A DNA stretch of 64,000 nt from Escherichia coli (GTDB lineage Bacteria; Pseudomonadota; Gammaproteobacteria; Enterobacterales; Enterobacteriaceae). Positions 39,001 through 42,000 of this stretch are shown one piece after another. Positions within the stretch are counted from its first letter, which is position 1. Every line of letters begins with the position of its first letter. The position numbers were made by a program. Where the stretch lies: the NCBI RefSeq assembly GCF_046105845.1, contig NZ_CP151004.1, one strand, 5' to 3'.

Positions 39001-42000
39001 TGATGGCAAAAACAACCAGACTATCAGCCCGCAAACAACAAATGCGATGGCTGCGGTGAGATACATCACTTTAAAACTAAATCCCATTGCCAGTTCATAA
39101 GCGAGCGGTGGTCCGATAACCCAGGCAAGCGAGATCTGAGCACGTAAAAATGTACTGAACATGACCGTCTCACGGCCTGTTCTGTCGGCGTGTTCACGGG
39201 CGAGGGCGAACATTTGCGGGTTTGCGGTGGAAGCAAAACTACTCAGAAGTACGCCCGTTGAGAGGAGAATGAAGTAGTTGCGATTCCACGCAAAAAGCGT
39301 GCAGGCCAGCACTCCAAATAAGCAACATAGCAGGATCAGTAATTTACGGTCGCCTTGTTTATCGGAGTGTCTTGCCAGAAATTGACTGACCAGAATTCCC
39401 ATAATAGCGCTACCGGTGAAGAAAAAACCTACCATTATAGGACGAGCTTTCAGTTCATCTGCGAGGAATATACTTAAGGTGGGAGTCTGGAGAGCGCCCG
39501 CAATACCCGTCAGAAAGGCGACAAGTAAAAATGCCGCGGCAGTGAGATCAAGTATTTTTGATGGAGTGGTAGCCGTTTTTTGCATTCTTCTGAATCACCG
39601 GGCGACAAAATATAACTGAGTTACAAATAAGTACCAGTCGAATGAGTATTGTATTAAGAATTTTTGAGTATCGCTGATACAACCAGAAAGCAATGCTAGC
39701 GCAATATTATAGGGCCAGCAATTGAGATTATTAGCAAAAGCATGTTAAGAATTAATTACCGAATTTATATATTAATTATAGTAAGGCAATGAGCTATTTT
39801 TGATAGTAAAAATAAAACAAGTTGATTTGATATGTTAAATGAACAAATTAATCTTGATGGCAGTCTGATTATTGGTGAGGTTTATAGGTCAGTTTTTTCG
39901 TCAGCGGTTAAAGAAATAGAATAGTCGTATAAAAAAGGGTGTGCAGAAGCGTGTAAAACAACATCTTCACCTTAATGGCGATACAGTTGGCTGAGAGTCA
40001 GCAGGGGGCAAATCACCTGCAAATAAACACGGCACATGCTGGCGCGCATATCGCGGATGCGTTCGAGGACAGAAGAACCGACAGGCGGATTCTTCAGCAG
40101 CTCATCGTCCATCACAAAACCTTTGACCAGGTATTTCTGAAACCGATTGAATATTGAGCAGTAGAAAATATCTGGATTGACAGTATTACGAGGGGTTGGA
40201 GAACGTATGAAGAGGCATTTTGGCGGAAGATCACAGGAGTCGAACCTGCCCGGGACCGCTGGCGGCCCCAACTGGATTTGAAGTCCAGCCGCCTCACCGG
40301 AGACGACGATCTTCCGCGCCTCGATTGCTACATGGAGGCGGGGCGCATTATAGCTACTTCCTTGAGTTTCTACATCCCCCAGATCAGTTTTTTCCGCCTA
40401 ATACACGCAGCGTATTATCACGAAAGCATTATAGTTCATATAAAACCCATATTTTACAATGATATATGAGCGAAATTAACGCTACCACGATCACATAAAA
40501 CAAGAATCATAAATTAATAACCAGATATCGGAATATTCGCTCTCACAGGGATGGTTTACAAAATGCGTTATCGGTCTCAGCACCCCTATAGCATCAAGGA
40601 AAAGCAGATGAAGAGTGAAGTGTTGTCCGTTAAAGAGAAAATTGGTTATGGCATGGGAGACGCCGCCAGCCACATTATTTTCGATAACGTAATGTTATAT
40701 ATGATGTTCTTTTATACCGATATTTTTGGCATACCTGCCGGATTTGTCGGAACCATGTTTTTGGTCGCTCGTGCACTGGATGCGATTTCCGATCCTTGCA
40801 TGGGGTTGTTGGCCGATCGAACGCGCTCTCGCTGGGGTAAATTTCGTCCGTGGGTACTGTTTGGCGCACTGCCATTTGGGATCGTCTGTGTACTGGCCTA
40901 TAGCACGCCAGATCTCAGTATGAACGGAAAAATGATTTATGCAGCAATTACTTACACCCTACTTACCTTACTTTATACCATCGTTAATATCCCTTACTGC
41001 GCATTGGGTGGTGTAATCACCAATGACCCGACTCAGCGTATCTCGCTGCAATCCTGGCGTTTTGTGCTGGCGACCGCGGGAGGCATGCTTTCTACTGTTC
41101 TGATGATGCCACTGGTTAATTTAATTGGCGGTGATAATAAACCACTCGGTTTCCAGGGCGGTATCGCGGTCCTTTCCGTGGTGGCATTCATGATGTTGGC
41201 ATTCTGTTTCTTCACCACTAAAGAACGCGTTGAAGCACCACCTACAACGACGTCTATGCGGGAAGATTTACGTGATATCTGGCAAAACGACCAGTGGCGG
41301 ATTGTCGGTTTACTAACCATTTTCAATATCCTGGCGGTGTGCGTCCGCGGTGGAGCGATGATGTATTACGTCACATGGATTTTGGGTACGCCGGAAGTGT
41401 TTGTCGCTTTTCTCACCACTTATTGCGTGGGTAACCTGATTGGTTCCGCACTGGCAAAACCGCTGACCGACTGGAAATGTAAAGTCACTATCTTCTGGTG
41501 GACGAACGCCCTGCTGGCAGTGATTAGCCTCGCGATGTTCTTTGTTCCTATGCAGGCCAGCATCACTATGTTTGTCTTCATCTTCGTGATTGGTGTGTTG
41601 CATCAACTGGTGACACCTATCCAGTGGGTAATGATGTCCGATACCGTCGACTACGGCGAGTGGTGCAATGGTAAACGCCTGACCGGGATCAGTTTTGCTG
41701 GCACGCTGTTTGTGCTCAAACTGGGGTTGGCCTTCGGCGGCGCTCTTATCGGCTGGATGCTGGCTTATGGCGGATATGATGCGGCAGAAAAAGCGCAGAA
41801 CAGCGCCACGATTAGCATCATTATTGCGCTATTCACGATTGTTCCGGCGATCTGTTATTTGCTGAGCGCGATTATCGCTAAACGCTACTACTCACTCACG
41901 ACGCACAATCTGAAAACCGTTATGGAACAGCTGGCCCAGGGCAAACGCCGTTGCCAGCAACAATTCACCTCTCAAGAAGTGCAGAACTAAGGAACGGCAA

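Follow-up and report, generated by a model that had tools for sequence, protein, structure and literature searches.

Between selC and setC in Escherichia coli: a probably decayed spacer with an orphan MxiE-box-type element and a fragment of rhuM

The MxiE box of Shigella follows the consensus GTATCGTTTTTTTANAG (PMC9769918), and copies validated experimentally as MxiE boxes also include those of yccE (TGAGCGATTTTTGATAG), yfdF (TGAGCGTTTTTTGATAG) and yjgL (AGAGCGTTTTTTGATAT) (PMC9769918, Table S2; also PMC9241512). Functional boxes strictly conserve nine nucleotides (nt), namely G1, G6, T7, T8, T9, T10, T12, A14 and A16, and the single substitution G6C lowers box activity six-fold (Bongrand et al., PMC3299695). 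Silué et al. [quoted passage not shown] Genomic islands named after selC, the gene for the selenocysteine tRNA (tRNA-Sec), are in turn known as selC-A and selC-B (eip) from enteroaggregative E. coli (EAEC) 042 and sequence type (ST) 69 (PMC7058095). Here we describe the spacer between selC and the sugar transporter gene setC in a 64,000-nt stretch of an Escherichia coli genome (contig NZ_CP151004.1), hereafter the window, where a further box of this type is followed by a 30-codon open reading frame (ORF). We conclude that the spacer is probably the selC-setC interval that non-B2 E. coli ordinarily have, pieced together from horizontally acquired DNA that has decayed and containing no working gene.

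The spacer spans positions 39586-40220, and its 635 base pairs (bp) agree with the roughly 630 bp given in a preliminary description of this DNA. On one side it is bounded by setC (38401-39585, minus strand), which the ORF list and the annotation of K-12 and other genomes identify as encoding a 394-amino-acid sugar efflux transporter of the major facilitator superfamily. On the other lies selC (40221-40315, minus strand), whose intactness, asserted beforehand, is borne out by both ARAGORN, which reads a tRNA-Sec with anticodon UCA, and Rfam RF01852, which scores 83.8 bits with the whole model covered (positions 1-91 of 91). Beyond selC, yicJ begins at 40551 on the plus strand, the window running in reverse orientation to the K-12 map. 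With no integrase and no second selC 3' end found, selC is unoccupied in the source genome, in line with the earlier statement that no large island is present: no integrase lies beside selC; the spacer contains no ORF longer than 99 amino acids and so no foreign cargo genes; the direct repeat of the selC 3' end that the preliminary description proposed to look for is absent from the 64-kb window at up to three mismatches; and a short-word search of 37000-40220 for the same 3' end returned a best match of 8 nt. The spacer also falls outside both the selC-A and the selC-B islands. Comparison with island carriers, likewise proposed, was informative: in BL21 and NRZ14408 the spacer persists, and the island is placed between it and selC, so that the spacer must predate these insertions.

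An orthologous spacer of 636 bp with the same layout and 96% identity separates selC from setC in K-12, and 3684 of 5426 complete E. coli genomes contain it. The region at hand is thus K-12-like in architecture, if not identical base for base. Taken with the lack of a longer homologue of the ORF, described below, this is in essence the outcome that the preliminary description had named as refuting its reading. Its guanine-plus-cytosine (GC) content of 38%, against 50% for the window, is unevenly distributed. The preliminary description of the flank as AT-rich holds for 39586-39950 (32% GC, dipping to 19-28% around the box) and not for the selC-proximal 270 bp (39951-40220), which are at 47%. 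Variability is no more even: among ten diverse alleles, the 200 bp nearest setC vary at 1-3 sites per 50 bp, as compared with 11-12 at 39886-39985 and 20 at 40136-40185. The most conserved part (39586-39785, to which no strand is assigned) is presumably the upstream or promoter region of setC.

The clearest remnant in the spacer, overlooked in the preliminary description, lies at its selC-proximal end. Here a 99-codon minus-strand ORF adjoining selC matches Pfam PF13310 (Virulence_RhuM) with E=8.4e-9 over model positions 51-99 of 252, and Pfam, PGAP annotation and tblastn/blastn together delimit an internal RhuM-family fragment at 40011-40145 on the minus strand, orthologous to the K-12 pseudogene yicT (b4653), which corresponds to about 39981-40112. 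Residues ~112-171 of the intact RhuM of strain SE15 align to 40180-40014 in both tblastn (E=2.7e-18) and blastn. Only ~50-60 of 345 residues survive, a 24-nt internal deletion separates the fragment from the SE15 gene and both ends are truncated (PGAP labels the fragment in other genomes 'RhuM family protein, incomplete', at both ends), for which reasons we classify the sequence as a pseudogene fragment. At the DNA level it is 74% identical to SE15 rhuM over 152 nt, and a 75-nt core in K-12-type genomes reaches 95-97%. The view of the flank as a remnant accordingly fits the RhuM fragment, and it does not extend to the 30-codon ORF as a demonstrable stump.

A rhuM gene is also found at selC in Salmonella, on pathogenicity island 3 (SPI-3). 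In SE15, a B2 strain, selC is followed at 52 bp by an intact rhuM of 345 amino acids, a repeat of the selC 3' end (31-35 bp, 88% identical, at 28036-28066 of locus L092), a gene for a 165-amino-acid hypothetical protein and yicL (L092 26740-29168); setC is absent, and the box was not found within 50 kb. This arrangement occurs in 844 genomes, as against the 3684 with the K-12-type spacer. The selC and yicJ side of the window is 99.4% identical to SE15, homology ends 10 bp beyond selC and restarts 82 bp past setC, and between these points the rhuM piece alone is similar. The hypothetical gene that follows the repeat in SE15 is AT-rich; its product was considered as the source of a spacer remnant and discarded, with no tblastn match against the spacer. 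A SetC search of representative genomes of other species returned as best matches only paralogues of the SetA/SetB type at 65-72% identity, E. albertii and E. whittamii included, and no tRNA gene lies near the SetC-like genes at the eight loci checked, among them all the Escherichia ones. setC would itself appear to be accessory in non-B2 E. coli, rather than part of an old backbone.

The second component of the spacer is the box, which the preliminary description had placed correctly at 39789-39806. It lies on the plus strand, pointing towards selC, and reads ATGAGCTATTTTTGATAG, with a 17-bp core at 39790-39806 (TGAGCTATTTTTGATAG). Its presence is far above chance: the window has five matches with up to three mismatches where 0.04 are expected, and by chance about 2.5e-6 consensus matches with no more than one mismatch would be expected in the spacer. 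The copies located upstream of yccE, yfdF (icaT) and yjgL (icaR) in K-12 are exactly the published validated boxes, and on this basis the 18-bp box can be identified, as far as sequence tells, as the form that the MxiE box takes on the E. coli chromosome, TGAGCG(A/T)TTTTTGATAG; a degenerate pattern for E. coli and Shigella reads TGAGC[GT][AT][AT]TTTTGATA[GT]. A different assignment, as an operator of the HilA-like regulator EilA, had been considered in view of the copies that precede eilA and eicA, and was dropped given that the box is the same as the validated yccE, yfdF and yjgL boxes. By box match and comparison with yccE, the spacer copy is thus an orphan element of the MxiE-box type.

The spacer core shares 16 of its 17 positions with the validated box of yccE, the sole difference being G6 to T, and 10 of the 16 specified positions with the Shigella consensus. 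Set against the nine conserved nucleotides, it retains six with T in place of G6; the functional yccE box retains seven, including G6. Position 6 of the spacer box is T in 3624 genomes and G in none, whereas the other E. coli box copies examined have G in eight out of eight. Otherwise the element is highly uniform: the 42 bp over the box and its flanks are identical in 3343 of the 3624 genomes, and the box is identical in nine of the ten diverse alleles, these being the nine that could be scored.

Behind the box, no gene stands where one would be expected. In Shigella the box occupies -49 to -33 of the promoter, with the -10 hexamer about 20-23 nt after it. We examined the corresponding geometry in a box-anchored alignment of ten promoters, from which start sites are predicted rather than mapped. 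At the other eight box copies a -10-like hexamer falls at +20/+21 to +26 after the box, in keeping with the Shigella arrangement, and the eight real box-driven genes start 57-200 nt past it. The spacer has a poor hexamer, TTGATA, at +21; its best predicted -10-like hexamer is TATGTT (TATATT in K-12), at 39831-39836 on the plus strand, or +25 to +30 after the box. No gene starts at the usual distance, the sole candidate being ATG-GCA-GTC-TGA at +51. Scans of the spacer matched tRNA-Sec as the sole Rfam family, sigma70-like promoters at chance level (2 against 1.6 expected) and no terminator above chance, with no plus-strand terminator downstream of the box, and a DNA search in distant mode with 39700-39975 found neither a second locus nor an annotated gene.

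Taken together, these findings lead us to propose that the spacer is made up of decayed pieces. The ~130-170 bp middle piece of rhuM (yicT) beside selC would be the leftover of a small selC-associated element that remains intact in B2 strains such as SE15. The AT-rich stretch holds one element of the MxiE-box type, pointing to selC with no gene behind it, of the same kind that drives yccE, yfdF and yjgL and that in the window precedes eicA-eipBCD, eilA and two unnamed paralogues. The species-wide replacement of G by T at an otherwise invariant position would mark a fossil promoter that is now silent, and we infer that the decay by which rhuM was truncated may also have removed the cargo gene of the box. 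A relic of a box-regulated promoter is a plausible reading of the spacer box, and a reasonable one because the box is not a chance match and its nearest match is a validated MxiE box.

Several points weigh against this interpretation. Either the K-12-type or the SE15-type flank of selC may be ancestral. No remnant of the supposed lost gene was identified in the spacer, and a former gene behind the box is conjectural to that extent. The usable -10 hexamer is only ~4 nt further from the box than those of the other promoters. The six-fold loss of activity was measured for G6C with MxiE/IpgC, whereas the spacer has G6T and the E. coli regulators would be EivF with EicA or YgeG. Finally, a uniform box with uniform flanks is also what a site still in use would show, though this uniformity is not specific evidence because the entire setC-proximal block is equally uniform.

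It is in this light that a still-functional box has to be weighed. The orphan box could respond to type III secretion, through EivF and a chaperone in strains that, like this one, are positive for ETT2 (E. coli type III secretion system 2) and eip or, in Shigella, through MxiE/IpgC, and drive, in the direction of selC, a short non-coding RNA that would be antisense to yicT and perhaps also to selC. The match to a validated box at all but one core position, the -10-like hexamer at +25 to +30 and a sequence that is invariant in the scorable alleles and nearly so across the genomes would all suit a live promoter, as would the apparently intact eip island of the window, with boxes before eicA and eilA, which makes it probable that cognate regulators are present. 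We nonetheless consider such activity unlikely, as the equivalent of G6 is T in every genome, neither a plus-strand terminator nor an Rfam family lies downstream, the DNA beyond the box evolves fast and with insertions and deletions, and setC, selC, yicL and yicT are all absent from the supplementary tables of MxiE RNA sequencing in PMC9769918. The more specific scenario, in which EivF plus EicA in E. coli positive for ETT2 and eip, or MxiE/IpgC in Shigella, would switch on an RNA antisense to yicT and the tRNA-Sec gene and so couple secretion to tRNA-Sec expression, is very improbable.

The preliminary description had drawn attention to the ORF behind the box and proposed that it was either a small regulated peptide gene or the stump of a deleted box-regulated gene. 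The ORF is present at 39832-39924 on the plus strand with exactly the translation quoted there, MLNEQINLDGSLIIGEVYRSVFSSAVKEIE; the ORF list, allele comparison and protein search together lead us to regard it as lineage-specific and non-genic. Its ATG (39832-39834) overlaps the -10-like hexamer. The exact 42-mer with this ATG occurs in 11 genomes, against at least 3461 with ATA, and the ten diverse alleles have ATG in three cases and ATA in six. Across these alleles the frame yields 30 amino acids, 53 amino acids where the stop is lost, 26 amino acids with a new tail after a frameshift, a stop after four codons, or no start at all. The most variable parts of the spacer are the ORF, at up to 12 variable sites per 50 bp, and the selC-proximal segment, at up to 20. 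By reading of the sequence, no Shine-Dalgarno motif precedes the ATG, and NCBIfam gave no family match.

A 49-amino-acid read-through of the ORF was then compared with 5.8 billion protein clusters. The search returned eight matches, all of at most 79 amino acids and all from the selC-setC locus itself, so that the idea of the ORF as the N-terminus of a longer protein finds no longer homologue among 5.8 billion proteins. The N-terminal differences among the eight trace to a one-base variant of the box, an IS5-like insertion or a lost stop codon. Two of them were looked at and set aside: P0001 (53 amino acids) is the selC-setC locus with its stop codon lost, and the odd stretch that lengthens P0007 at its N-terminus derives from the end of an IS5-like insertion. 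In the P0003 allele, the T-run of the box is one base shorter, and the ATG within the box thereby comes to share the reading frame of the ORF. Several assemblies (P0003-P0008; L102) have unrelated sequence fused just upstream of '...LNEQINLDG', near 39826-39835, and one of them carries an IS5-like insertion upstream of the ORF (L102 1963-2943); the AT-rich trough may be a hot spot of insertion.

Quite unlikely, in our view, is a reading of the ORF as what is left of the 5' end of a deleted box-regulated gene, with the true N-terminus of a lost effector preserved, although the part of the earlier suggestion that concerns a relic promoter remains plausible. In its favor, the ORF has the box close upstream on its own strand, and several lineages keep all 30 codons open although the allele of the window and that of K-12 differ by a compensating pair of one-base changes. 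On the other hand, no longer chain shares its N-terminus in the database searched, and when YccE, YfdF, YjgL, EicA, EilA, the ygeF-like protein of 042 and the paralogous pair from the window were compared with the spacer by tblastn, no match had an E-value below 0.4. The ATG also sits at +26 to +28 after the box, that is, inside the predicted -10 and upstream of any predicted start site, well short of the distance at which the eight real box genes begin, and an alternative start is excluded because an in-frame TGA lies three codons upstream.

Decidedly unlikely, too, is an explanation that dispenses with type III secretion altogether and has the box-like sequence kept as part of the setC upstream region, for instance as a site at which H-NS nucleates or as a divergent operator. 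Its attractions are that the box borders the most conserved block, the one nearest setC, and falls within the GC trough, and that the MxiE box resembles the high-affinity motif of H-NS (PMC9769918). Against it stand a 17/18 match to one specific 18-bp consensus, of the very low chance expectation given above, the position of the box, 204-221 bp upstream of setC and oriented the other way, and the lack of any excess of sigma70-like matches in the spacer. A genuine small regulated peptide gene, for which an ATG-initiated ORF behind a regulatory box in the source genome and occasional calls by gene callers might speak, is extremely improbable given a start codon missing from the great majority of genomes, frames broken by frameshift, early stop or stop loss in other alleles, the lack of a Shine-Dalgarno motif and of an NCBIfam match, and a location in the fastest-evolving part of the spacer. 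In the reading that we prefer, namely a decayed spacer without a working gene, the ORF would have arisen by chance, its ATG created by a single-base variant within the -10-like hexamer that is missing in most of the species, and it is best regarded as a lineage-specific accident, not a gene.

Decay at this site can go further. In E. coli Z142-6 (L005 6001-8600), two IS1 copies around an integrase fragment replace most of the spacer between setC and selC, an example of insertion sequence (IS)-mediated erosion of the selC-setC site. A database match that covers only 55 bp of the spacer (H30) was set aside, as it proved to be a setC-selC gap with two IS1 and an integrase fragment that looks like an IS1-mediated rearrangement.

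Box copies elsewhere provide the wider context. Relative to K-12, the window has two insertions, at 1436-4805 and 15957-36043. The first, 3.4 kb between ilvN and uhpA, is absent from K-12 and present in 1109 of 5426 genomes, O157:H7 included; it contains two unnamed paralogous ORFs (1686-2993 and 3209-4705, of 435 and 498 amino acids, 26% identical, E=5e-27), and a perfect box stands before each of them (1469-1486 and 3076-3093, respectively). NCBIfam has no match for either ORF and PGAP calls them hypothetical; from their sequence and boxes they look like candidate secretion substrates under ETT2/MxiE-type regulation. The second insertion has nepI and yicS as its neighbors and is the eip/selC-B island known from EAEC 042 and ST69 (PMC7058095). 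It comprises a 4190-amino-acid, Ig-repeat air/eaeX-like gene (16157-28729), eilA (28779-30476), eipD/C/B-like genes (30679-34996) and eicA (35243-35740), with MxiE-type boxes on the minus strand at 30551-30568, 75 nt before eilA, and at 35801-35818, 61 nt before eicA. This placement suggests chaperone-dependent control of the AraC type, like that of InvF/SicA at sicA, with feedback onto eilA.

The ETT2 locus of EAEC 042 likewise contains a perfect 18-bp box (NC_017626.1 3252724-3252741; L007 14724-14741), 86 nt upstream of a 163-amino-acid ygeF-like ORF that is followed by ygeG, encoding a tetratricopeptide repeat chaperone, and ygeH. No box with up to three mismatches precedes the eprH-like, eivF-like or export-apparatus operons of that locus. 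Because copies stand before eicA-eipBCD, eilA and ygeF/ygeG, we assign the box, on the strength of its genomic neighbors, to the ETT2/eip system of E. coli. This assignment bears on the origin of the fossil genes yccE, yfdF and yjgL, and in light of the same boxes EivF with EicA would be a pairing worth testing.

How, then, does the locus compare with the systems described so far? With EAEC 042 the window shares the selC-B/eip island between nepI and yicS, setC, yicL and nlpA lying between that island and selC; it differs from EAEC 042 and ST69 in lacking selC-A, the true tRNA-inserted island with its 21-bp repeat boundary. As in the rhuM mini-element of SE15, RhuM-family sequence stands directly 3' of selC and on the selC strand, but here it is confined to residues ~112-171 of 345, and the flanking direct repeat is gone. 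The K-12 region with yicT is alike in position, length, layout, rhuM fragment and an identical 18-bp box, and is distinguished by ATA at the start of the ORF and by the paired compensating one-base changes within it. The box-plus-ORF arrangement at a classic island site would thus be ordinary decayed backbone DNA common to K-12, with little significance for the locus as such. Its interest lies rather in the comparison with the yccE, yfdF and yjgL promoters (PMC9769918, PMC9241512, PMC3299695). Like them, the spacer box is embedded in AT-rich DNA of horizontally acquired character that is conserved in non-B2 E. coli, whereas the spacer copy has T at G6, a -10 about 4 nt further off and no gene at +57 to +90. 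The spacer would accordingly add a further, orphan copy of the MxiE-type box to those of yccE, yfdF and yjgL, already described as 'fossil' genes.

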